This document shows positions 3,951-36,014 of a stretch of 64,000 bases of DNA, in pieces. The notes beneath the pieces were generated by a model. It ran no database searches and was not told the origin of the DNA. It worked only from the letters and a program-made list of their open reading frames with translations. Within the stretch, counting starts at the first letter, position 1. Each line of letters begins with the position of its first letter. Made by a program: the position numbers and the translations under genes. Source of the DNA: Jeongeupia wiesaeckerbachi (GTDB taxonomy: Bacteria > Pseudomonadota > Gammaproteobacteria > Burkholderiales > Chitinibacteraceae); the NCBI RefSeq assembly GCF_050916355.1, contig NZ_CP136946.1, positions 598,162 through 662,161 of the forward strand. The letters are read 5' to 3'.

Positions 3951-6785
3951 ATGAGCTCTGCTACCGAACCCACCGCCCTCGAACAGCTTGCCAAGAGCTT
4001 TGAACCGGCCGCCATCGAAGCCAGCTGGTATCCGCGCTGGGAAAGCGCGAATTACTTCAGCCCGAGCATGGACATGGCCGCGCCGTCGTTCTGCATCCAG
4101 CTGCCGCCACCGAACGTCACCGGCACGCTGCACATGGGCCATGCGTTCAACCAGACGATCATGGACGGGCTGACCCGCTACCACCGGATGCGCGGTGACA
4201 ACACGCTGTGGCTGCCGGGCACCGACCACGCCGGCATCGCGACGCAGATCGTCGTCGAACGCCAGCTCGACGCCCAGGGCGTATCGCGCCACGATCTCGG
4301 CCGTCCGGCATTCATCGAAAAAGTGTGGGACTGGAAAAAGCAATCGGGCGACACCATCACCGGCCAGATGCGCCGGATGGGCGCGTCGGTGGACTGGAGC
4401 CGCGAATACTTCACCATGGACGACAAGATGTCGACCTGCGTGTCTGAGGTCTTCGTCCGGCTGTACGAGCAAGGGCTGATCTACCGCGGCAAGCGACTGG
4501 TGAACTGGGACCCGGTGCTCGGCACCGCCGTCTCCGACCTCGAAGTGGTCAGCGAGGAAGAAGATGGCCATATGTGGCACATCAACTACCCGGTCGTGGG
4601 TTCGGACGAGTTCATTACCGTCGCGACGACGCGGCCGGAAACGCTACTCGGCGACGTCGCCGTGGCGATCAATCCGGACGACGAACGCTACCAGCACCTT
4701 TTGGGCAAGCAGCTCGCGCTGCCGCTGACCGGCCGGCAGATCCCGGTGATCGCCGACGAATACGTCGACAAGGATTTCGGTACAGGCTTCGTCAAGATCA
4801 CCCCGGCGCACGACTTCAACGACTATCAGGTCGGCAAGCGCCACGACACCAAGCTCATCAACGTGATGAGCCTGACCGCGACCATCCTGCCGCAGGCGCA
4901 GGTGTTCGGCTTCGATGGTTCGGCGTTTGATGCCATCGAACTGCCGGCGGCCTATGCAGGCCTGTCGACCCGCGACGCCCGCAAGGCGATGCTGGCCGAT
5001 CTGGAGGCCGGCGGCTTCCTGGTCGAAACCAAGAAGCACAAGCTGATGGTGCCGCGTGGCGATCGCACCGGCACGGTGATCGAGCCGATGCTGACCGACC
5101 AGTGGTTCGTCGCGATGAGCAAGGCCGACGAAACCGGCAAGAGCATCACCGACAAGGCCCTCGAAGTCGTCCAGAACGGCGAGGTGCAGTTCGTTCCCGG
5201 CGACTGGGTCAATACCTATTACGCGTGGCTCAACAACATCCAGGACTGGTGCATCTCGCGCCAACTGTGGTGGGGCCACCAGATTCCGGCGTGGTACGAC
5301 GCCGATGGCAAGGTCTACGTTGCCCGCACCGAGGCCGAGGCCGTCGCCCAGGCCGGCGGCAAGCCGGTCACGCGCGACAACGACGTACTCGACACCTGGT
5401 TCTCCTCGGCCCTGGTGCCGTTCTCGAGCCTCGGCTGGCCGAACGACACCAACGAACTCAAGGCCTTCATGCCGTCAAGCGTGCTGGTCACCGGCTACGA
5501 CATCATTTTCTTCTGGGTCGCCCGGATGATCATGATGACCAAGCACTTCACCGGCAAGGTGCCGTTCAGCCACGTCTACGTGCACGGGCTGGTGCGCGAC
5601 GGCGAGGGCAAGAAGATGTCCAAGTCCGAGGGCAATGTGCTCGATCCGGTCGACCTGATCGACGGCATCGCGCTCGAACCGCTGCTGGAAAAACGCACCA
5701 GCGGCCTGCGCCGGCCGGAAAAAGCCCCGCAAGTTGCCAAGAAAACCGAGAAGGAATTCCCGGACGGCATCCCCGCCTACGGCGTCGATGCGCTGCGCTT
5801 CACCTTCGCCTCGCTGGCGTCGCTCGGTCGCTCGATCAACTTCGACCAGAAGCGCTGCGAGGGTTACCGCAACTTCTGCAACAAGCTGTGGAACGCCACG
5901 CGCTTCGTGCTGATGAATGTCGAGGGCAAGGATTGCGGCCTCGAAGCGAATGCCGAGCTGGATTACTCGTTCGCCGACCGCTGGATCATCGGCAAGCTGC
6001 AGGAGGCCGAGAAATCGGTGACGCTGGCACTCGACACCTTCCGCTTCGACCTCGCCGCGCAAGCGATCTATGAATTCGTCTGGAACGAGTACTGCGACTG
6101 GTATATCGAACTGGCCAAGGTTTCGGCGCAGACCGGCTCCGAAGCGCAGCAGCGCGCGACGCGACGCACGCTGATCCGCGTGCTCGAAGTCATCCTGCGG
6201 CTCGTCCACCCGATCATGCCCTTCATTACCGAGGAGCTGTGGCAGGTTGTCGCACCGCTGGCCGGCAAGAAGGACACCGATTCGCTGATGATCGCCCAAT
6301 GGCCGGTCGCCGATGAAAGCAAGATCGACCTTGAGGCCTATGCGGCGGTCGACGAGCTCAAGGCCATCGCCTTCGCCGCACGCAATCTGCGCGCCGAAAT
6401 GGGCCTGCCGCCGTCAACCAAGGTGCCGATGTTCCTGGAAGGCGATGCATCGCTGGCGCGCTTTGGCGATTACCTGAAGTCGCTGGCCAAGCTGTCGGAA
6501 GTGAACGTCACGGCCCGCCTGCCCGACGACGATGCGCCGGTCGCCGTCGCCGGTACCACGCGGCTGATGCTCAAGGTCGAAGTCGACAAGGCCGCCGAAA
6601 CCGCGCGCCTCTCCAAGGACATCGCCAAGACCGAGGAAGGCCTGACCAAGATGACCGCCAAGCTCGAAAAACCGGGCTACATCGACAAGGCACCGGCGCA
6701 TCTGGTCGAGAAGGACCGCGCGCAGATCGCCGAGCTGAGCGACAAGCTGGCGAAACTGCAACAGCAACTCGCAAAGCTCAAGTAA
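3951..6785 (+). CDS. valS: Valine--tRNA ligase
   Basis: 944 aa with a class I HIGH motif ([14 protein letters not shown]), a KMSKS motif (KMSKSEGN), an editing domain and a C-terminal coiled coil. Confidence 0.97.
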
Positions 6786-13474: not shown

Positions 13475-13501
13475 TAACAAGCAAGAACAACAATCCCGCT
13501 C

Positions 13502-13527
13502 AGCCCGGCGCAAGCCGGGCTTTTTTA
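13502..13527 (+). terminator. Rho-independent terminator after the chemoreceptor gene
   Basis: agcccggcgcaagccgggct followed by tttttt. Confidence 0.75.
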
Positions 13528-13588
13528 CGCTCGCCGTTGCCGCGGGCGGCGTTGCGCGCCATGCTTGGGACAGTACACGGAGCCATGC

Positions 13589-15250
13589 ATGCGTCTCATC
13601 CACCTGCAGGTCGACAATTTCCGCGGCATCAGCCGCATCGCGCTGTCGCTCGAAGCCGACCGCAGCGTACTGTTCGGCGAAAACAACTGGGGCAAGACCA
13701 GCCTGATCGACGCGCTGGCGCGCTGTCTCGGCCCGGGTGCCGCTGCCGGACCGCGTTTCGACCTGGATGACTTCCACCACGACGCCGACGGCATCGCTGC
13801 AAAGGCACTGGCGATCACGCTGACCTTTGGCGACGACGAACCCAAACCGCTGCCGCTGTCGCCACGACTGACCTCGCTGGCGTGGCGCGACCGCAAGGGG
13901 TGCTGGCGTGTCAGCCTGCGCATTGCCGCGTTCCGCCGTGGCGACGTCATCAGCGTACGGCGCGAACTGCTCGGCCCGAGCGGCAAGGTCCGCCACCATC
14001 CGGAGGCCGACGCGCTGGCGTGCGAACTCGTCATGCGCCACCCGGTACTGCGACTGCGCGAAATGCAGCTGGCGCAATGGATGACGCCAGCACGCAACGA
14101 CGGCAAGCCGATTCCGCTCGACACCGGCGAAGCGCCGGCCGACATCGTCCAGCGCACCTTCGAAGCCCTGCTGCAGCAACCGCACCGGGTCGGCCCCAAG
14201 GTATTGCAACAAGGCATCGCCGCGATGCGCGAACTGTTGTGCCGCCATGCCGACCAGCTGCCACAGCCGGTCACGCTACGGCTGGCCGAAGACATCGCTT
14301 CAGCGCCGGTGACGTTCCGCGATCACGCCAGTCTGCTCGAAATCGCCAACCGCGCCGGCAGCAGCACCCAGCAGCTGGCGCTGCTGTTCCTGCTCGGCTC
14401 GCTGCTCGAAGCGCGCGGCACCGACGCGCTGCGCGACAGCGAAATGCCCTTGCTGCTGGTCGAAGACCCCGAAACCCATCTGCACCCTACCCAGCTGGTG
14501 CAGTTGTGGGGGCTGGTCGAGCAACTGCCGGTGCAAAAGCTCGTCACCACCAATAGCGGCGAGCTGCTGGCCAGCTTCCCGCACCACAGCCTGCGGCGGC
14601 TGGTACGCGGCAACGACAAGGTCTTCGTCTACCAGATGGGGCGCAACGGGCTATCGAAACAGGACGCCCGCAAGGTCGGTTTTCATGTCCGCGTCAACCG
14701 GCCGAACAGCCTGTTCGCACGCACCTGGCTGCTGGTCGAAGGCGAAACCGAATTCTGGCTGCTGCCCGAGCTGGCGCGCCGCTACGGCGTCAACCTCGGT
14801 GCGCTCGGCATCCGCAGCGTCGAATTCGCCCAGGCCGGGCTCGCGCCGCTGATCAAGTTCGCCGATGCGTTCGGCATTCGCTGGCACCTCGTCACCGATG
14901 GCGACGACGCCGGCCGGATGTACGCGAACAAAACGCGCGCGCTGCTGCACGGCCGCGACGAGGACCGCCACCTGACCGTGCTGCCGTCACGCGACATCGA
15001 ACACTATCTGTTCGAGAACGGCTTCGCCGACGTCTACCGCAGCGCCGCACACTGGACCCGCGGCCCCGTTCCCGGCACCGCCGAGCTGATCCACCGCGCC
15101 ATCCGCCGCGAGGCCAAGCCGGGCATGGCGCTGGCGATTGCCGAGGCGGCCGAACAGCGCGGCAAGGCCAGTATTCCGCCGCTGCTGGCGCGCTTGTTCG
15201 ACACCCTGGCCGAGCTGGCTCAGGACGAAGACGCGCGCGAACTGCGGTAA
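13589..15250 (+). CDS. OLD-family ATP-dependent endonuclease (class 1, single-gene; YbjD-like; ABC-type ATPase plus Toprim)
   Basis: Start at MRLIHLQVDNFRGI with a GGAG RBS 6 nt upstream. Walker A is LFGENNWGKTSLIDAL, Walker B/H-loop is LLLVEDPETHLHP, and the C-terminal Toprim domain has a catalytic Glu (WLLVEGETEFWLL) and a DxD motif (HLVTDGDDAG). Confidence 0.8.
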   Translation: MRLIHLQVDNFRGISRIALSLEADRSVLFGENNWGKTSLIDALARCLGPGAAAGPRFDLDDFHHDADGIAAKALAITLTFGDDEPKPLPLSPRLTSLAWRDRKGCWRVSLRIAAFRRGDVISVRRELLGPSGKVRHHPEADALACELVMRHPVLRLREMQLAQWMTPARNDGKPIPLDTGEAPADIVQRTFEALLQQPHRVGPKVLQQGIAAMRELLCRHADQLPQPVTLRLAEDIASAPVTFRDHASLLEIANRAGSSTQQLALLFLLGSLLEARGTDALRDSEMPLLLVEDPETHLHPTQLVQLWGLVEQLPVQKLVTTNSGELLASFPHHSLRRLVRGNDKVFVYQMGRNGLSKQDARKVGFHVRVNRPNSLFARTWLLVEGETEFWLLPELARRYGVNLGALGIRSVEFAQAGLAPLIKFADAFGIRWHLVTDGDDAGRMYANKTRALLHGRDEDRHLTVLPSRDIEHYLFENGFADVYRSAAHWTRGPVPGTAELIHRAIRREAKPGMALAIAEAAEQRGKASIPPLLARLFDTLAELAQDEDARELR

Positions 15251-27835: not shown

Positions 27836-28882
27836 CTAGGAAGTGGAGCGCACGCGTACTTGCGCCATCGTCGCAGTCAGTTGCTCAGTCTCGATGTCCA
27901 CCGGCAAGAACTTTTCGATCACCGCAACATTGGTGTGCAGGTGAGATGAAGCATGGCTTGTCGTGAAAGCGCCTCCGCCGGCGAGGACCAGCGGCAAGAG
28001 CAACTGATCTGCAAGGTGTTCGCCGACTGCCGCGTCGCTTTTCAAATAGCTTCTGGCTTGACGTACGACGTCGTCGGCAACCGATTCGGCTGAAACACCC
28101 TTTTCACCAAAACCAGTAAACACCTCGGTAATCTCGCCTCGCACAACCTCAATGAGCAGCACGTTGCCCGGCCCTTCCGAGCTCGGCAATACGCGAAGCT
28201 GCCCATCCACATCAGCCATCTGGGTGTTGATCCGCTCCAGCTCGCGCTTGGCGACGCTGGCCGGCACGCCTGCGACCAAGGCTTCGGCACGCAGGCGCGC
28301 CTCGCCCCCGCGTGTGGTCAGGTCGATCGGCTGCAACACCGCACACGGCTCGACCTTAGCCAAAACCTGACCGCCTCCAGCCGGGTAAAAGCCGTGGCGC
28401 AGCAGTTCAATCGATTGCTTGACCCCCATGCGGTGCAGCAGCGGCTGCCACGCCCGGATCAGAAAATCGGCCGGCGGCGCCGCGTGGTTATGCGTGCCAC
28501 CGGTCACCAGGACCGAACTCGGCACATCGGCAGACCACAACGCCGGCAGCACCGTCTGCAGCACCAGTGTGCAGCTGCCGGCGCTACCAATGGCGAACTG
28601 GTAGTCGCCACCGCGAATCGGCCCCGGCGCGAAGCTCAGGGTTTGCGAACCGAGCCCGGCGCCCTGAACCTTGGCGCCCGAGATCGCCGTGGCAGCCTGC
28701 ACGGCGGTCAGGTGCTGACGCAGCAGCCCGGGCTTGCTGCGTTTGGCGCGGATACTTTCGATCCGGAACGGCAAGCCGGTGATCATCGACAGCGTCAGCG
28801 CGGTGCGCAGCACCTGGCCGCCCCCCTCGCCTTCCGCACCATCCAATTCGATCCACGCTTGTTTGAAATCCTGACTTTTCAT
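27836..28882 (-). CDS. rtcA: RNA 3'-terminal phosphate cyclase
   Basis: Starts at MKSQDFKQAWIELDGAEGEGGGQVLRTALTLS.... Conserved RtcA motifs include the His-containing region (...TSHASSHLHTN). Confidence 0.9.
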   Translation of the reverse strand: MKSQDFKQAWIELDGAEGEGGGQVLRTALTLSMITGLPFRIESIRAKRSKPGLLRQHLTAVQAATAISGAKVQGAGLGSQTLSFAPGPIRGGDYQFAIGSAGSCTLVLQTVLPALWSADVPSSVLVTGGTHNHAAPPADFLIRAWQPLLHRMGVKQSIELLRHGFYPAGGGQVLAKVEPCAVLQPIDLTTRGGEARLRAEALVAGVPASVAKRELERINTQMADVDGQLRVLPSSEGPGNVLLIEVVRGEITEVFTGFGEKGVSAESVADDVVRQARSYLKSDAAVGEHLADQLLLPLVLAGGGAFTTSHASSHLHTNVAVIEKFLPVDIETEQLTATMAQVRVRSTS

Positions 28883-28924: not shown

Positions 28925-29746
28925 CTAAGTGGAATGCTTAGGCAAGAACGCCCCAACCTGGCCAATGGCATCGAGCAGAAGACGATCGAGTGCAGTGGCG
29001 TCCCCTGTCGGTTTCTTGAAATCGCTCGGAGGCTTTTCAGCCGCCAGCGTCCGCTCGATAAATGCATGGATCAGTGGGAAGCGCGCACCGTGCTCCGCCT
29101 CACCGGCGGCCATCTTGACGGCCAGCAGCGCATTGATCTCCTCGCGCAGTGCCGGCTCAAGCACCATCGCATCGGCAAGATCGGCGAAACGCATCGGCGG
29201 CATGCCGTTGCCGGCATCGATCCATTGCGCGGCCAGTAGCGGACGCAGCACATACAAATACTTTTTCAGCCGCACCGTCTCGCCTTGCAGGTATCCACGG
29301 AAATTCTTCTTCGCCATCGCCAGGTAGTGCCACCGCCCCTTTCGTTCGGATAAGAAGGCCGACTTCAAGGTGCGCAGTTGCTCGCCAACGCCAGCATCCT
29401 CGCGATAGATCACCGGCGAATCGAGCCATTCGAACAGCGTCGGGTTGGAACGCCGCATCAACTGCAGTGCCTTGCGCAACTCCCAGCCGCATACGTCGAG
29501 TTCGTCGCTGATCGGCACTTCGATCACATCACGCTGCGGTTCGACCCGCAGATACCAGTCGAGCTTGTGCACATAGAGAAAGCGCACGTCATAGTCGCTG
29601 TCGGGCGAGGCAAAGCCCCAGCCCCGACTGCCGGACTCACAGGCAAACAGCACGCGCACATCGTGACGCGCTTCGATGGCCGTCAACTCATCCATCACAC
29701 GTTCCCGCATCAGCGGCTCGATCGGGTGGGCACTCAGAATCTTCAT
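28925..29746 (-). CDS. Pol-beta superfamily nucleotidyltransferase associated with RNA ligase (RlaP-like)
   Basis: 274 aa from MKILSAHPIEP (GGAG RBS). Nucleotidyltransferase motif FACESGSRGWGFASPDSDYDVRFLY (GS...D.D). Located between rtcB and rtcA. Confidence 0.65.
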   Translation of the reverse strand: MKILSAHPIEPLMRERVMDELTAIEARHDVRVLFACESGSRGWGFASPDSDYDVRFLYVHKLDWYLRVEPQRDVIEVPISDELDVCGWELRKALQLMRRSNPTLFEWLDSPVIYREDAGVGEQLRTLKSAFLSERKGRWHYLAMAKKNFRGYLQGETVRLKKYLYVLRPLLAAQWIDAGNGMPPMRFADLADAMVLEPALREEINALLAVKMAAGEAEHGARFPLIHAFIERTLAAEKPPSDFKKPTGDATALDRLLLDAIGQVGAFLPKHST

Positions 29747-29814
29747 TTCCGTTCTCCGCCGGTATCCAGACCGGTCTTGTCTCACTCCGGGCGGGGCCCT
29801 TGCCCCTCCCCGGA

Positions 29815-31025
<1,211 letters not shown>

Positions 31026-31029
<4 letters not shown>

Positions 31030-31432: not shown

Positions 31433-32569
31433 CTAGGTTTTCAAGCTCACCAGCCCGTTCAGCAACTGGTCGAAGCCGCCGATTACCGAAATCTTGTCGA
31501 TCCGCTCGGCCAGCCGCTCCAGCGTTTCCAGCTCCTTGAGCCGCAGCGCCGTCGGGTTGTCTTCCATCACCTTGGCCGTGTTGAGCAGCGAGCGGGTGGC
31601 CCCGGTTTCCTCGCGTCGGCGGATCACATTGGCTTGCGCCGCTTTTTCCGCCTCGACCACTTGCGCCAGCAGTGCCTTCATTTCGCCCGGCAACACGATG
31701 TCTTTCACGCCGAGGCTCGCCACACGCACGCCGAAGCCGTTTAGCCGCGCGGTCATGTGCAGGCTCACGACGTCATCAATCACCTGCTTGTTCTCCAGCA
31801 GCTCGTCGAGCGTGCGGGTGCCGACGGCGGCGCGCAGGCCGAACTGCAACTCGCGGTAGATATGCTCCATCGGCTTGGCTAGGCGCGAGAACGCCAGTGC
31901 CACGTCGTCGAACAGCCAGTTGGCGGCGAGGTTGACGCGCAGGCTCACCTTGTCGCGTGTGAGGATCTCCTGCCCGGTGATCTCGACCGTTTGCAAGCGG
32001 GTATCAACCAGATCGACCGCGATATCGCGGTTGAACCGCCAGTAGGCGTAGCGCCCCGGTTGCAGCAGCGCAACGCGCTGACCGTCGATCCGCAATAGGC
32101 CGACCAGGCCGTCCTGCACTTGTACGTTCAATATCGCGTTGAGTCCGATGATGGCTTTGCCGCGCAAGGCCGGCTGGGCAATTCGCGCCAGCAGTGCCTC
32201 AGGCACGGCCCAGCCCGCAGCAAGGTCGATCCGCTCGAAACGCTGCGCTACCGCGTCCCGCCAATACATGCGGCGCGAGCCCGGCGCGACGATCTCGACC
32301 AGAACCTCGTTCTCGAAGCGCAGTCCGGCCTCGTTGTCGCCAAGGTCGAACAGCGCAAAGTGCGACGCCACGACCTCCGGTTCGTACTGGCGCAGGTATT
32401 CGGCCAGCGGGTGTTCGAACAGCGCTTCGTCCAGCGGATAGGCCACGACGGCGTAGTCGCGCTTCAGGCTGGTTTTCAGGTAGCGGCCCGGCTGCAATAC
32501 GGCGGTGAAATCGCCGTTGCACAGCAGCAGGGCGCGTTCATTCTTGCGTACCAGAAATCGTTGCCACAT
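31433..32569 (-). CDS. Cytoplasmic SPFH/band-7 (slipin-like) protein with a degenerate N-terminal SPFH-like duplication; first gene of the rtc operon
   Basis: 378 aa from MWQRFLV... with no TM helix. The C-terminal half is a canonical SPFH domain (...TRDKVSLRVNLAANW...VASLGVKDIVLPGEMKALLAQVVEAEKAAQANVIRRREETGA). The N-terminal half repeats an LQPGRY motif. Confidence 0.65.
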   Translation of the reverse strand: MWQRFLVRKNERALLLCNGDFTAVLQPGRYLKTSLKRDYAVVAYPLDEALFEHPLAEYLRQYEPEVVASHFALFDLGDNEAGLRFENEVLVEIVAPGSRRMYWRDAVAQRFERIDLAAGWAVPEALLARIAQPALRGKAIIGLNAILNVQVQDGLVGLLRIDGQRVALLQPGRYAYWRFNRDIAVDLVDTRLQTVEITGQEILTRDKVSLRVNLAANWLFDDVALAFSRLAKPMEHIYRELQFGLRAAVGTRTLDELLENKQVIDDVVSLHMTARLNGFGVRVASLGVKDIVLPGEMKALLAQVVEAEKAAQANVIRRREETGATRSLLNTAKVMEDNPTALRLKELETLERLAERIDKISVIGGFDQLLNGLVSLKT

Positions 32570-32793
32570 CTCTCTTTTCCTTTTTATTGGCCGGTTGTCG
32601 TCGATCCGGACAGGGGGCCGCATGGCCATCCAGGGGGCCGTCGCACCAGGGCGCTGTCGTGCGCAACCTTGATGGCCGGTTGCTCATTCAGCGCGCCTCG
32701 CACTCGGGCTGCCTGGGGGCGATACCACCCCCGGGCCGGATCGACGGCGGCATTGCCGCGCCGGGTACTGCGTTTTGCAAAGTCCCTTTCGGG

Positions 32794-32860
32794 GTTTCGA
32801 GCGGGAGTCGAACCCGCGACACACGGTGTTGAACCGTTGCTCTACCCATTGAGCTATCGA
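32794..32860 (-). ncRNA. tRNA-like element B in the rtc leader: canonical D-arm and T-arm with a non-canonical anticodon arm
   Basis: Minus-strand read: UCGAUA-GCUC-AAUGGGUA-GAGC-A-ACGGU-UCAAC-ACCGU-GUGU-GCGGG-UUCGACU-CCCGC-UCGAAAC. The D-stem/loop contains GG and the T-arm is a perfect 5 bp plus UUCGACU loop. The anticodon loop is only 5 nt and the acceptor pairing is weak, so this is not a true tRNA. Confidence 0.5.
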
Positions 32861-32906
32861 TGGCGGCGATCCGGGAATCGAACCCGGCGGGCACCAAGCA
32901 TCGCCA
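32861..32906 (-). ncRNA. tRNA-like element A in the rtc leader: acceptor-stem/T-arm minihelix ending in an encoded CCA
   Basis: Minus-strand read: UGGCGAU-gcuuggugcccg-CCGGG-UUCGAUU-CCCGG-AUCGCCG-CCA. A perfect T-arm with 7-bp acceptor pairing (one U-G) and a 3' CCA. Confidence 0.5.
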
Positions 32907-33017
32907 ATGACTGCGCTTCCACACGGCGGTACATGCACTGCCCAACGGGCGACATGCCGGCGCGGCTTGAGAACCGCTCACCCCAGGGCCGTGCTTTCCT
33001 GCAGTCCAGGGTTACAC

Positions 33018-33033
33018 AGCGAAAGTCGTGCCA
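33018..33033 (-). promoter_or_regulatory. Putative sigma-54 (-24/-12) promoter of the rtc operon
   Basis: Minus-strand TGGCAC-gactt-TCGCT, with GG and GC 12 nt apart. It lies divergent from rtcR, which encodes the sigma-54 activator of this locus. Confidence 0.5.
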
Positions 33034-33172: not shown

Positions 33173-34789
33173 ATGAAGCGTGTCGTCGTTTTCGGTTTCG
33201 TCGGTACGGTGCTCGACTATGTCGGCAAGGGTGGGCAGCGCTGGGAGAAGTGGCGGCCTACCGTCGGGCTGTGTCAGCAGGAAGACCTGATCGTCGACCG
33301 GATCGAGCTGCTGCATGACAGTCGCAGCCGGGGGCTGTTCGAGCGCTTGAAGCGGGACATCGAGACTGTCTCTCCCGGGACCGAGGTGGTCAGCGTCGAG
33401 GTCAACCTGCGCGACCCGTGGGATTTCGAGGAGGTTTACGCCGCGCTGCACGACTTCGCCCGCGGCTATGCCTTCGACACCGAGGCCGAGGATTACCTGA
33501 TCCACATCACCACCGGCACCCACGTCGCCCAGATCTGCTGGTTCCTGCTCGCCGAGGCCCGCTACCTGCCGGCCAGGCTGGTGCAGACGTCGCCACCACG
33601 CAGGCGCGAGGGCGAAGGCGTCGCCGGCAGTTACGCGCTGATCGATCTCGACCTGTCGCGCTACAACAAGATCGCCACGCGTTTCGCGCGCGAGCAGGCC
33701 GAGACGGTGTCCTTCCTCAAGTCCGGCATTGCCACGCGCAACGCGCGCTTCAACCGGATGATCGAGCAGATCGAGCGGGTCGCCATGCGCTCAAAGGCGC
33801 CGATGCTGCTGTGCGGCCCGACCGGCGCCGGCAAGTCCTTTCTGGCGAGACGGATCTACGAACTGAAAAAAGCCCGCCACCAGCTGGCCGGCCGCTTTGT
33901 CGAGGTGAACTGCGCGACCTTGCGCGGCGATAGCGCGATGTCGGCATTGTTCGGCCATGTGAAGGGGGCGTTTACCGGAGCCCAGACCGAGCGGGCCGGT
34001 TTGCTGCGCAGCGCCGACGGCGGCTTGTTGTTCCTCGATGAAATCGGCGAACTGGGCCTGGACGAGCAGGCGATGCTGCTCAAGGCGATCGAAGAAAAGC
34101 GTTTCTTCCCGTTCGGCAGCGATCGCGAAACCGACAGCAATTTTCAATTGATTGCCGGTACGGTGCGCGACCTGAAGCAATGGGTGGCCGAAGGCAGGTT
34201 CCGCGAAGACTTGTACGCCCGGATCAACTTGTGGACCTACGAGCTACCGGGCCTGGCGGAGCGCGCCGAAGATCTCGAACCGAACCTTGAATTCGAACTG
34301 GCCCGCTTCGCCAGCGAGCACGGTGAACAGGTCCGCTTCAATGCCGAAGCCAGGCGGGCCTATCTCAAGTTTGCCACCTCAAGCGAAGCCAGGTGGGCCG
34401 GCAATTTCCGCGAACTCTCGGCGTCGGTCACGCGGCTGGCAACGCTGGCAGACGCGGGCCGAATTACCAACGACAACGTCGACGAAGAGATCGGTCGCCT
34501 GCGTCAGGCGTGGCGCAACGGCGATACCAGCGAGCTGACCGACCTGCTGGGGGAAAAGAGCGGACTGCTCGACCTGTTTGACCGCCTGCAGCTGGAAAAC
34601 GTGATCGAGGTCTGCAAACAATCCAGCTCCCTATCCGATGCCGGCCGACGCTTGTTCGGGATGTCGCGGCAAGAAAAAGCCAAGGCCAACGACGCAGACC
34701 GGTTGAGGAAATATCTGGCCAGATATGAATTGAGCTGGCAGCAGATTCAGGACATCCCCGAGCCATCCCGCGGCACGGGAAAACCTTGA
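33173..34789 (+). CDS. rtcR: Sigma-54-dependent transcriptional regulator RtcR (CARF-like N-terminal domain, AAA+ domain, HTH)
   Basis: 538 aa with an AAA+ sigma-54 activator core ([33 protein letters not shown]) and a long N-terminal RtcR-type sensor domain. Divergent from rtcB/rtcA. Confidence 0.9.
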
Positions 34790-34925: not shown

Positions 34926-36014
34926 TTAGCCGTTGCGCAGCAGATCGCCCATCACCGTCTGTTCGCCGCGCTTGCGCGCGGCCGACGGCGCGTCGTACAG
35001 CAGCAGCCAGCGACGCGGCCCGGCCCAGCCGGCCGGCAGTGCGCACAGCGCCTCGGCGCGGTCCTCGCCGACGCCATAGGGCAGCGCCAGCTGCTCGACC
35101 GCGGCGTCCCACCACATCGCGGCGGCCTCGTCGTCGGGTACCGCAGCGAGCGCCTGCGCGGCACCGGTCCAGCGGAACACGCGGACCGCACCATCGAGCA
35201 CCATGGTCGGGCCGGCGAGGATCAGCAGATCGTCGCCATCCATGTGCAGGTCGCGAACGCCCAGACCGGCCAATCGCAGGAAATGCTTGCGGTAGTGCGC
35301 GCCGCCCTTGCCCAGTGGCCGCAGCCGCAGCTTGCCCTTGCGGGTTTCGACCGCGATTTCGAGCACGCACGACCAGCCACGCAGCACCGGCCCGCGCAGG
35401 CCGAGCAACAACCGGTCGCCGTGCAGCGCCAGCCCTTCGATATCGAGACCGTTGTCCTTGCCCGGAATCGCCAGGAACGGCGCCAGTTGTGCGTCGTCGG
35501 CCAGCAGTTCGGTCAGTTCGTTGCGGCGCGGGCCGCCCTTGAGCACCGCGGCGCTACGGCCGTCCGGCGCTTCGCGCACCAGCATCGGCAGGCCGTCGGC
35601 GCCGTCCACCAGCGGAATGCGCGCCAGCAGGCAGCGGTTGCCGTCATGGCTCAAGGTCGCCAGCCGCGCGAGATTGTCGTCGCGGCCGGGCTTGGGGTTC
35701 TTGCGTTTGAGCCCGTGCGAGCCGACCAGCCACAGATAGCCGTCGGCGCAGGCCAGCCCTTCGATATCGGCCTCGATGTCGGCGGCGGCCGGCAGGTCGA
35801 GGTAGTCGGCCAGCGGGAAATGCTGCGCCTCGCCAAACCGCAGCACTTCGCCGTCGACCGGATCGAGCCGGCGCAGCCGGTCGAGCCCGCAGGCCTCGTC
35901 GCCGGCGACCCACAGCGCATCACCGCTGACGCAGGCGCCCGACAGGTTGTCATGGACCAGTTGCTCGCCGTCGAGCTCGAGCCGCACGGCGTGTTGCTGC
36001 AGATGACGGGGCAT
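34926..36014 (-). CDS. Hypothetical protein (362 aa; possibly DUF3616-like), downstream of the Spo0M-like gene
   Basis: Long ORF with good coding character, 9 bp after the Spo0M-like gene. No catalytic motif recognised. Confidence 0.45.
   Translation of the reverse strand: MPRHLQQHAVRLELDGEQLVHDNLSGACVSGDALWVAGDEACGLDRLRRLDPVDGEVLRFGEAQHFPLADYLDLPAAADIEADIEGLACADGYLWLVGSHGLKRKNPKPGRDDNLARLATLSHDGNRCLLARIPLVDGADGLPMLVREAPDGRSAAVLKGGPRRNELTELLADDAQLAPFLAIPGKDNGLDIEGLALHGDRLLLGLRGPVLRGWSCVLEIAVETRKGKLRLRPLGKGGAHYRKHFLRLAGLGVRDLHMDGDDLLILAGPTMVLDGAVRVFRWTGAAQALAAVPDDEAAAMWWDAAVEQLALPYGVGEDRAEALCALPAGWAGPRRWLLLYDAPSAARKRGEQTVMGDLLRNG

Follow-up and report, generated by a model that had tools for sequence, protein, structure and literature searches.

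Two tandem tRNA-like modules in the structured leader of a Band-7–RtcB operon of Jeongeupia wiesaeckerbachi and their relation to the predicted b7a-tRNA family

What kind of RNA is encoded between rtcR and the RNA repair genes of Jeongeupia wiesaeckerbachi, where two transfer RNA (tRNA)-like modules stand in the leader of an rtc operon and no rsr gene accompanies them? The locus was analysed in a window of 64 kb (contig NZ_CP136946.1, positions 598,162 to 662,161), i.e. the whole stretch of DNA considered here; all leader and operon coordinates below refer to this window and to its minus strand unless given otherwise. To our knowledge, the substrates and cofactors of bacterial RtcB/RtcA repair are poorly defined. 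The operon starts with a gene for a Band-7/SPFH protein, and the modules, named A and B, lie in tandem upstream of it. Their assignment as the Jeongeupia copy of the b7a-tRNA family, a predicted class of tRNA-like RNA, is well supported, since it follows from the operon content, the tRNA score of module B, the match to a covariance model of the family (R1) and the co-occurrence with Band-7 loci; b7a-tRNA itself was compared by its secondary description. The two modules were delimited as follows:

32861–32906, minus strand: module A, tRNA-like minihelix with a 7-base pair (bp) acceptor, the T-arm at 32871–32887 and a 3′ CCA at 32861–32863

32797–32860, minus strand: module B, tRNA-like cloverleaf with a 4-bp acceptor, the D-arm at 32839–32854, an anticodon-like arm at 32823–32837 and the T-arm at 32801–32817

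Module A starts about 110 nucleotides (nt) downstream of the sigma-54 promoter motif. Its acceptor is UGGCGAU/AUCGCCG, the first pair being U-G, and the 3′ strand is followed directly by CCA. The T-arm reads CCGGG-UUCGAUU-CCCGG, and a small GG-containing hairpin stands in place of the D and anticodon arms. Module A directly abuts module B, so that CCA and UCGA adjoin at the junction. Module B reads UCGA UA GCUC-AAUGGGUA-GAGC A ACGGU-UCAAC-ACCGU GUGUC GCGGG-UUCGACU-CCCGC UCGA. Its parts are the acceptor UCGA/UCGA, a D-arm, an anticodon-like arm whose stem ACGGU/ACCGU closes a loop of 5 nt, a variable region of likewise 5 nt and a T-arm; it carries no 3′ CCA tail.

With 42.8 bits, module B exceeded the gathering score of the Rfam tRNA model (RF00005), which is 29 (E = 9.6e-6, the whole window being searched); the match covered model positions 4–67 only, i.e. 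without the first three acceptor pairs. Module A gave no score with this model, and ARAGORN called no tRNA in the window. Neither module has the full architecture of a tRNA: B has a short acceptor and no CCA, and A has acceptor and CCA without a true D or anticodon arm. Nor does the 5-nt loop of B correspond to the 7-nt, ortholog-conserved anticodon loop of a functional decoder. The initial annotation had described the same two back-to-back modules downstream of a sigma-54 promoter: A as a minihelix with a 7-bp acceptor, a perfect T-arm and a 3′ CCA, and B as an element with canonical D- and T-arms, a 5-nt anticodon loop and a poor acceptor, tRNA-like rather than a tRNA. All these features were found again, and the 4-bp acceptor, the missing CCA and the lack of an ARAGORN call agree with the last point. 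The folding energy of 32775–32910 was no better than that of shuffled sequences (z = −0.37), and the minimum free energy (MFE) fold was not a cloverleaf. Single-sequence thermodynamics is uninformative in GC-rich, tRNA-like sequence, which is why the case is built on covariance models and on comparison between loci.

The Band-7 protein is 100% identical to one of Jeongeupia wiesaeckerbachi, by which the window belongs to the Betaproteobacteria, and it has more than 7,000 homologs. From beta- and gamma-proteobacteria, 80 genomic loci were fetched via the Band-7 alignment. Most of them show the order rtcR, leader, band-7 and rtcB, optionally followed by rlaP and rtcA, and in nearly all of them two T-loops lie 70–75 nt apart, about 250–400 nt upstream of band-7. 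The model R1 was built from 38 loci, leaving out the window and its closest relative; the acceptor of module A was kept out of it, as MAFFT failed on the variable inserts in the 5′ half of A. On the window, R1 matched 32795–32910 with 96.8 bits (E = 8e-25), the next best match there reaching 6 bits. Of the 78 Band-7 loci with upstream sequence, 75 contain the tandem element in their leader, at 44–119 bits (71 of these at 77–119). Band-7-linked family members scored 70–119 bits, loci of the Y RNA YrlA 22–34 and true tRNAs at most 68, so that the margin over tightly packed true tRNAs was narrower than that over YrlA. A scan of viral contigs for Band-7 gave one locus only, without upstream sequence.

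The check for covarying pairs in homologous leaders, which the initial annotation had proposed, turned out in favour of the modules: the acceptors of A and B and the anticodon-like and T stems of B are conserved with covariation, and the D stem of B is invariant. In an alignment of module B from 76 sequences, the cloverleaf was 93.8% paired, with 97% for the acceptor (UCGA/UCGA alternating with UGGA/UCCA), 98.4% for the anticodon-like stem, in which 5/5 pairs covary, and 99.7% for the T stem. The covariation score was 0.42 compared with 0.15 in shuffled alignments; none of 500 shuffles reached it, and slid controls gave 0.10 or less. The variable region is 5 nt long in 75/76 loci, which is the class-I geometry of tRNAs. 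The acceptor of module A was tested by a search-and-shuffle control instead of the MAFFT alignment. It paired at 7/7 positions in 31 and at 6/7 in 35 of 66 loci, with 49 distinct 3′ strands, whereas only 6% of shuffled 3′ strands reached 7/7 pairing in the same search. CCA follows this acceptor in 30 of the 50 loci of the minihelix type, compared with a background of 4.8%. In Betaproteobacteria, including the window, the D and anticodon arms of A are reduced to a short hairpin, usually with GG in its loop (YUGGUGR). The Pseudomonas module A forms a complete cloverleaf, including 7-bp acceptor and discriminator, and has CCA in 0/16 loci.

The 'anticodon' loop of module B is 4, 5, 6, 7, 8 and 15 nt long in 9, 6, 18, 41, 1 and 1 loci, respectively (i.e. 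not 7 nt in 35/76). Among the 76 loci, 50 different loops were counted, with many UUCG or GNRA tetraloops. ARAGORN gave the orthologs more than 12 different identities, or none, in an inconsistent manner. Since all stems covary while the 'anticodon' loops and the ARAGORN identities vary, the alignments indicate that what is selected is tRNA shape (the acceptor/T stack and, probably, the elbow) rather than decoding. This bears on the simplest alternative, namely that ordinary tRNA genes or decaying tRNA pseudogenes lie by chance between rtcR and the operon. Module B does pass the Rfam tRNA threshold, ARAGORN calls some orthologs, true tRNA arrays lie upstream in some relatives (see below) and a P. 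aeruginosa gene is annotated as tRNA-Arg4. This gene, PA4581.1, is situated between rtcR (PA4581) and PA4582–PA4585, is without CCA and is detectable by quantitative reverse-transcription PCR (qRT-PCR) (PMC13637947). By its position, it is probably the P. aeruginosa counterpart, a module A of the Pseudomonas type, PAO1 lying outside the loci examined. However, ordinary tRNAs do not account for the 4-bp acceptor, 5-nt loop and missing CCA of B, for the absence of a true D or anticodon arm in A or for predicted 'anticodons' that differ among close orthologs. As to pseudogenes, position, stems and D/T sequences are kept with compensatory changes across beta- and gamma-proteobacteria, which argues for purifying selection and not decay. 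We consider this alternative scarcely credible.

The identity of the family can be placed more closely. The 2016 abstract of Burroughs and Aravind in Nucleic Acids Res reportedly names 'SPFH/Band-7 modules' with 'a novel tRNA-like molecule', and these authors are said to have proposed a cofactor- or scaffold-type role for the Band-7-associated tRNA-like RNA, by the same logic as for YrlA with Rsr. In a preprint (bioRxiv 10.1101/312249), their 2016 prediction appears as b7a-tRNA, a tRNA-like RNA beside RtcB and Band-7 which 'strongly resembles an authentic tRNA' and is a computational, unvalidated prediction; the preprint also tells of occasional partner swaps, with b7a-tRNA next to Rsr and YrlA next to Band-7. 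The Jeongeupia element adjoins Band-7 in an RtcB cluster, has a tRNA-like fold with canonical D and T arms and is homologous to the elements of other Band-7–RtcB loci. Rfam holds no family for b7a-tRNA. An Rsr-independent Y-like RNA had been judged unusual in the initial annotation, which overlooked that the first operon gene encodes a Band-7/SPFH protein, a known replacement of Rsr. With a tRNA mimic beside Band-7 predicted in 2016, according to this preprint, the Rsr-independent tRNA mimic in this rtc operon is a new case of a predicted class and not unprecedented.

The elements had also been labelled Y-RNA/YrlA-like, and this label did not hold. As a YrlA-type Y RNA, the T-arm of A, the linker and the D-arm of B would form one permuted domain binding an Rsr/Ro60 protein encoded elsewhere in the genome. 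The T-arm-then-D-arm order is indeed that of YrlA, partner swaps between b7a-tRNA and YrlA are mentioned in the preprint cited above, and Rfam YrlA gave a weak match (23.3 bits, E = 0.018) at 32810–32907. This score is far under the gathering score of 69, and the match runs from the T-arm of A into the D-arm of B and includes many non-canonical pairs. The covariance-model search suggested by the initial annotation thus had a divided outcome, module B lying over the tRNA threshold and YrlA far below its own. Tandem-tRNA false positives were excluded as a class by the YrlA authors (PMC4201824), and because the match connects the T-arm of one module with the D-arm of the next, it belongs to that class. 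Covariation favours two separate tRNA-like folds. The YrlA fold was rejected as a candidate structure, as its permuted closing stems cannot coexist with the covarying anticodon-like stem, T stem and acceptor of B and the acceptor of A; between A and B, the linker shows no conserved closed hairpin, and no long Ro-binding stem was found.

The absence of rsr noted in the initial annotation was borne out for the window and the related loci, the rest of the genome lying outside the search. Pfam detected no TROVE domain in 16 open reading frames (ORFs), including ten further ORFs of 419–619 amino acids, the size range of Ro60 orthologs. Similarly, tblastn with a bona fide Ro60/Rsr protein, taken from a metagenomic rtcR-rsr-rtcB-rtcA locus and carrying Pfam vWA_Ro60 and TROVE, gave no match in the 64-kb window or the 80 related loci, so that the rsr gene expected within about 4 kb of a YrlA is lacking in these sequences. 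An RNA-first scan of metagenomes for a T-loop followed by a D-arm within 24 nt was unspecific and returned mostly tightly packed true tRNAs. It yielded 9 loci with Band-7, 10 with Rsr and 0 with both beside such an RNA. In the Rsr-linked RNAs, a closed acceptor-like hairpin separates the arms; these RNAs reached only 22–34 bits on R1, in contrast to 70–113 bits for the Band-7-linked RNAs (70–92 for those with a distant Band-7, 30–46% identical to the protein of the window). Altogether, a YrlA-type RNA appears very improbable.

The same metagenome pattern also brought up canonical rtcR-rsr-YrlA-like-rtcB-rtcA loci (L177, 1878–3774, and L138, L147 and L190). In L103 (contig JACCDW010534783.1), more than 20 tRNA-like matches on one strand occur together with a distant Ro60-like gene (27% identity); such a locus may belong to a phage or to a mobile tRNA array with Rsr as cargo.

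How are the modules expressed? The promoter and the genes of the operon, with the Pfam assignments, are the following:

33173–34789, plus strand: rtcR, divergent sigma-54 activator with an RtcR/CARF-type sensor domain (RtcR 4.5e-87, Sigma54_activat 1.7e-49)

33018–33033, minus strand: sigma-54 (−24/−12) promoter TGGCACGACTTTCGCT, divergent from rtcR

31433–32569, minus strand: Band-7/SPFH ('slipin') gene, the first operon gene (Band_7)

29815–31029, minus strand: rtcB, RNA 3′-phosphate/5′-OH ligase (RtcB 1.7e-129)

28925–29752, minus strand: rlaP, RNA-repair-associated Pol-beta-type nucleotidyltransferase (RlaP 2.7e-97)

27836–28882, minus strand: rtcA, RNA 3′-phosphate cyclase (RTC 7.6e-78 and RTC_insert)

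On the minus strand, the leader is thus followed by Band_7, RtcB, RlaP and RTC, with RtcR divergent. TGGCACGACTTTCGCT is the sole match to TGGCAC-N5-TYGCW in the 64 kb, where 0.15 matches are expected by chance. As 15 of 100 shuffled sequences contained at least one match, the promoter call leans also on the adjacency to rtcR. Most of the related loci containing RtcR have the same motif at the equivalent position. A divergent RtcR, a −24/−12 promoter and downstream RtcB and RtcA, as expected of an rtc operon controlled by RtcR and sigma-54, are all present. Between the modules and band-7, neither an intrinsic terminator nor a sigma-70-like promoter was detected. Since, in addition, the sigma-54 motif is unique, modules A and B are presumably transcribed from the RtcR-dependent promoter within a leader of ~440 nt and together with band-7, which agrees with the co-transcription with the rtc genes proposed in the initial annotation.

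Conservation is not confined to the modules and spans the whole leader of about 440 nt. Three further elements were delimited:

32925–32990, minus strand: 5′ domain, a three-way junction formed by P0, hairpin P1 and P2 (GUGCGC.../...GCGCAU)

32784–32794, minus strand: hairpin C (CCC-GAAA-GGG), directly 3′ of module B

about 32590–32771, minus strand: 3′ domain, a long irregular hairpin (~180 nt) that opens at the conserved GCAGUACCCG-YCGG block

The order of the leader is therefore 5′ three-way junction, module A, module B, hairpin C, long 3′ hairpin and ribosome-binding site. The leader was read by RNAalifold and by counting pairs in anchored sub-alignments, since whole-leader MFE folds and RNAduplex between the flanks proved too permissive. 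In P0 of the 5′ domain, the first GGC pairs with the GCC of the invariant AUGCCGCC box (AUGCCGC). Over 41 loci, 94.1% of the cells of this domain were paired compared with 77.7% in shuffles, and its covariation score of 0.497 (0.207 in shuffled alignments) was reached by 0/500 shuffles, slid controls giving 0.133 or less. The 3′ domain closes at CCGGC, just before the ribosome-binding site; in the alignment row of the window itself, the closing helix lies one or two bases out of register. RNAalifold predicted 34 pairs for this domain from 31 loci, 29 of them with compensatory changes; 94.1% of the cells were paired compared with 76.1% in shuffles, and the covariation score of 0.586 (0.250 shuffled) was again reached by 0/500 shuffles, with slid controls at 0.113 or below. 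Nearly all loci have a hairpin at the position of hairpin C with differing stems (CUGCC/GGCAG, CUGUC/GACAG, ACC/GGU); 5/5 of its pairs covary and 75% of the cells were paired in the unrefined MAFFT alignment. No Rfam family matched the 5′ or the 3′ leader domain, even at E up to 10.

Given conservation and covariation in both flanking domains, the whole leader of ~440 nt looks like one structured RNA in the alignments. It is conceivable, though we rate it at somewhat less than an even chance, that the leader is one conserved multi-domain RNA, a new large riboregulator or ribonucleoprotein scaffold specific to Band-7–RtcB operons, in which A and B are interchangeable modules present in 0, 1 or 2 copies per lineage and the T-arm-then-D-arm junction could be an evolutionary intermediate from tRNA arrays to the permuted YrlA.

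A long-range helix between the 5′ CCNACGGG block and the 3′ CCCGYCGG block was tried as well and received no support from RNAalifold: the CCNACGGG block belongs to the 5′ three-way junction, and the CCCGYCGG block pairs with CCGGC near the ribosome-binding site. In the window, GCCGCGCCGG (32957–32966, minus strand; 3′ strand of the 5′-domain hairpin) is perfectly complementary to CCGGCGCGGC (32755–32764, minus strand; start of the 3′ domain). The complementarity is 9/10 in L001 and is not found in most other loci, where both positions read CCGCCGG; for the window and L001, an alternative long-range pairing is conceivable.

What might such a leader do? We lean slightly towards the reading that the b7a-tRNA leader is processed like a tandem tRNA precursor and that its products serve as a trans-acting cofactor or scaffold of the Band-7 protein. 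An acceptor/T stack of 12 bp ending in (N)CCA is the form recognised by bacterial RNase P and by tRNA 3′-trimming enzymes. The 7-bp acceptor and 5-bp T stem of module A add up to such a stack and would make it an ideal substrate. Cuts at the 5′ end of A and at the A/B junction would release a minihelix of ~46 nt ending in CCA; as the CCA of A abuts the first paired base of B, a cut at the 5′ end of B would leave a mature CCA end on A. Module B would then be found at the new 5′ end, either of the band-7–rtcB messenger RNA (mRNA) or of a separate stable RNA, and would stay there since it has no 3′ tail. In support of processing, the acceptor of A is kept through 49 different sequences and CCA is frequent after it in the minihelix-type loci.

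The tRNA-shaped products would act in trans as an RNA cofactor or scaffold of an oligomeric Band-7 assembly with RtcB, RlaP and RtcA on damaged tRNA-like substrates, by analogy with YrlA and Rsr. The Band-7 protein is predicted to be soluble, with no transmembrane helix, and its model has an SPFH fold with a long C-terminal helix, like the ring- or cage-forming stomatin and HflK/C, and resembles the major vault protein. The scaffold idea derives from this predicted likeness to stomatin and HflK/C and from the finding that, in the metagenome sample, Band-7 and Rsr never occurred at the same locus beside this kind of RNA. Apart from this, residues 1–150 of the Band-7 protein form a beta-rich N-terminal region without a Pfam match, in which the LQPGRY motif of the SPFH-domain start recurs; by this motif, the N-terminal ~150 residues may be a degenerate, duplicated SPFH N-terminal module.

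Several observations weigh against the processing and scaffold reading. The 80 loci were collected through the Band-7 protein and alone cannot show specificity for Band-7. The acceptor and T stack of module B is only 9 bp long, and RNase P cleavage at the A/B junction is thus not assured; moreover, the modules A of the Pseudomonas and Burkholderia types are without CCA. In P. aegrilactucae, P. donghuensis and P. entomophila (L005, L009 and L061; leaders at about 5500–6000), plain hairpins replace A and B, and these species keep the operon, both leader domains and hairpin C. Three other loci (L010, L020 and L032) have a single module, apparently by A/B fusion or loss of A. Because both modules were replaced in the one group and only one is kept in the other, tRNA shape is dispensable in some lineages. 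Conservation of the 5′ and 3′ domains points to a role of the leader in cis, in addition or instead. Finally, the tRNA-Arg4 level of P. aeruginosa measured by qRT-PCR was unchanged when the Rtc proteins were strongly induced (PMC13637947), which fits poorly with simple co-transcription from an inducible promoter.

The main rival is a purely cis-acting leader, in which the modules would be processing, stability or sensing elements of the band-7–rtcB mRNA. In one version, RNase P/Z cleavage would set a protected 5′ end capped by module B. In another, stress- or toxin-induced tRNases would cut the mimic, and the fragments with 2′,3′-cyclic phosphates would feed back on the CARF domain of RtcR; RtcR responds to tRNA fragments with cyclic-phosphate ends (PMC7790460). 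Without exception, the modules are part of the 5′ leader and on the coding strand, no terminator separates them from band-7, the whole leader is conserved with a covarying 5′ domain and a covarying 3′ domain that closes at the ribosome-binding site, the scaffold persists where the tRNA-like modules are lost, and module B, lacking a 3′ tail, would remain on the mRNA. On the other hand, both modules are kept in thirteen Burkholderiales loci (including Aquabacterium, Ideonella and Ramlibacter) with no adjacent rtcR and no sigma-54 motif, and feedback on RtcR therefore cannot be the general function. Moreover, the anticodon loop, which is the usual target of tRNases, is unconserved and often a tetraloop. 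A sigma-54 promoter is essentially silent before activation, so that the mimic cannot be the primary sensor, and the invariance of the D- and T-arms is stronger than a simple processing signal needs. A purely cis-acting role is thus possible but rather unlikely in our view.

The loci without rtcR have a further peculiarity. A gene for an HNH endonuclease lies directly upstream of the leader in 13/13 of them (L037, L043, L052, L053, L055, L056, L060, L069, L070, L074, L075, L077 and L078), and farther upstream, on the same strand, most of these, as well as L059, L072 and L140, have an array of 1–14 tRNA genes of canonical appearance. An example of the region with the HNH gene and the tRNA array is:

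L037, 4145–5483: HNH/tRNA-array region

These arrays recall the proposal that tRNA mimics are decoys. As decoys or sponges, the modules would compete with tRNAs for tRNA-targeting ribonuclease toxins or for tRNA-binding proteins of defence or offence, and so would shield the real tRNAs while RtcB repairs the damage. A role as competitive inhibitor has been suggested for YrlA's tRNA-like domain (PMC7790460) and a sponge role for tRNAs from inducible arrays (PMC8421152), and the relatives without rtcR have true-tRNA arrays and an HNH gene upstream. However, variable or closed anticodon loops make no decoy for anticodon nucleases, one or two inducible copies would hardly suffice to titrate an enzyme in competition with the entire pool of tRNAs, and the modules are lost in some lineages. 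As the anticodon loop is unconserved, this explanation is weaker than the cis-acting one, and we regard it as improbable.

Two other genes of the window were noted. A DUF3616 gene (34926–36014, minus strand) follows rtcR directly in convergent orientation; as 0/80 related loci had a detected copy, it is probably unrelated to the rtc system. A gene of the OLD-family nuclease type (13478–15247, plus strand) combines DUF2813, an OLD-like TOPRIM and an AAA domain; genes of this kind are frequent in systems of anti-phage defence.

To a specialist, a tRNA-like RNA in a Band-7–RtcB operon is expected and not surprising. The value of the finding lies in the fact that the b7a-tRNA class is only predicted, in the clean definition of the family, in the larger structured leader and in the link to tRNA arrays. 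The locus and its 75 relatives provide a defined target, with module boundaries, a family model, a likely RNase P/CCA scheme and natural variants with 0, 1 or 2 modules. The covarying leader domains and the HNH/tRNA-array link suggest that the RNA side of the repair system is richer than 'one tRNA mimic'.

Several known systems resemble the Jeongeupia leader in part. The mascRNA and menRNA of the MALAT1 and MEN-beta transcripts are likewise acceptor/T-arm mimics inside a longer transcript, from which they are cut out by RNase P/Z to leave a small CCA-bearing RNA. These are eukaryotic RNAs and no homology is implied; the match of module A to the mascRNA/menRNA family was not significant (17.7 bits, E = 0.91). 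The vault particle, which contains vault RNA, the TROVE protein TEP1 and a major vault protein whose shoulder domain is SPFH-like, may be compared by analogy only. The cyanobacterial L-arrays combine an upstream HNH gene, long tRNA arrays and a co-regulated rtcB under translational stress (Santamaria-Gomez et al., NAR 2021; PMC8421152). They share with the present family the neighbourhood of tRNA-shaped RNAs, HNH and RtcB, most of all in the relatives without rtcR, where the order is tRNA array, HNH, leader, band-7 and rtcB. However, the L-arrays comprise up to 43 genes for functional decoder tRNAs, whereas the window has two non-decoding mimics, no array and no HNH gene. PA4581.1 of P. aeruginosa is similarly a tRNA-like gene between rtcR and the PA4582 (Band-7)–rtcB cluster, and the Pseudomonas-type module A has a discriminator G; module A of the window differs from it as a minihelix with CCA that receives no ARAGORN call. 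YrlA (RF02553) is also a tRNA-mimicking RNA of an rtcR-controlled rtcBA operon, with a near-identical consensus of the D- and T-arms and a proposed role as cofactor or decoy in RNA repair or decay. In contrast to the two consecutive unpermuted modules of the window, which have neither a Ro-binding stem nor rsr, YrlA is a single permuted domain, whose T-arm, closed acceptor-like hairpin and D-arm are carried by a long stem that binds Rsr. As for b7a-tRNA, the match is known from its secondary description, beyond which lie module A, the tandem layout, the CCA and the flanking domains; what the two have in common is a tRNA-like RNA beside Band-7/SPFH and RtcB, at the place where other rtc operons have YrlA and Rsr.

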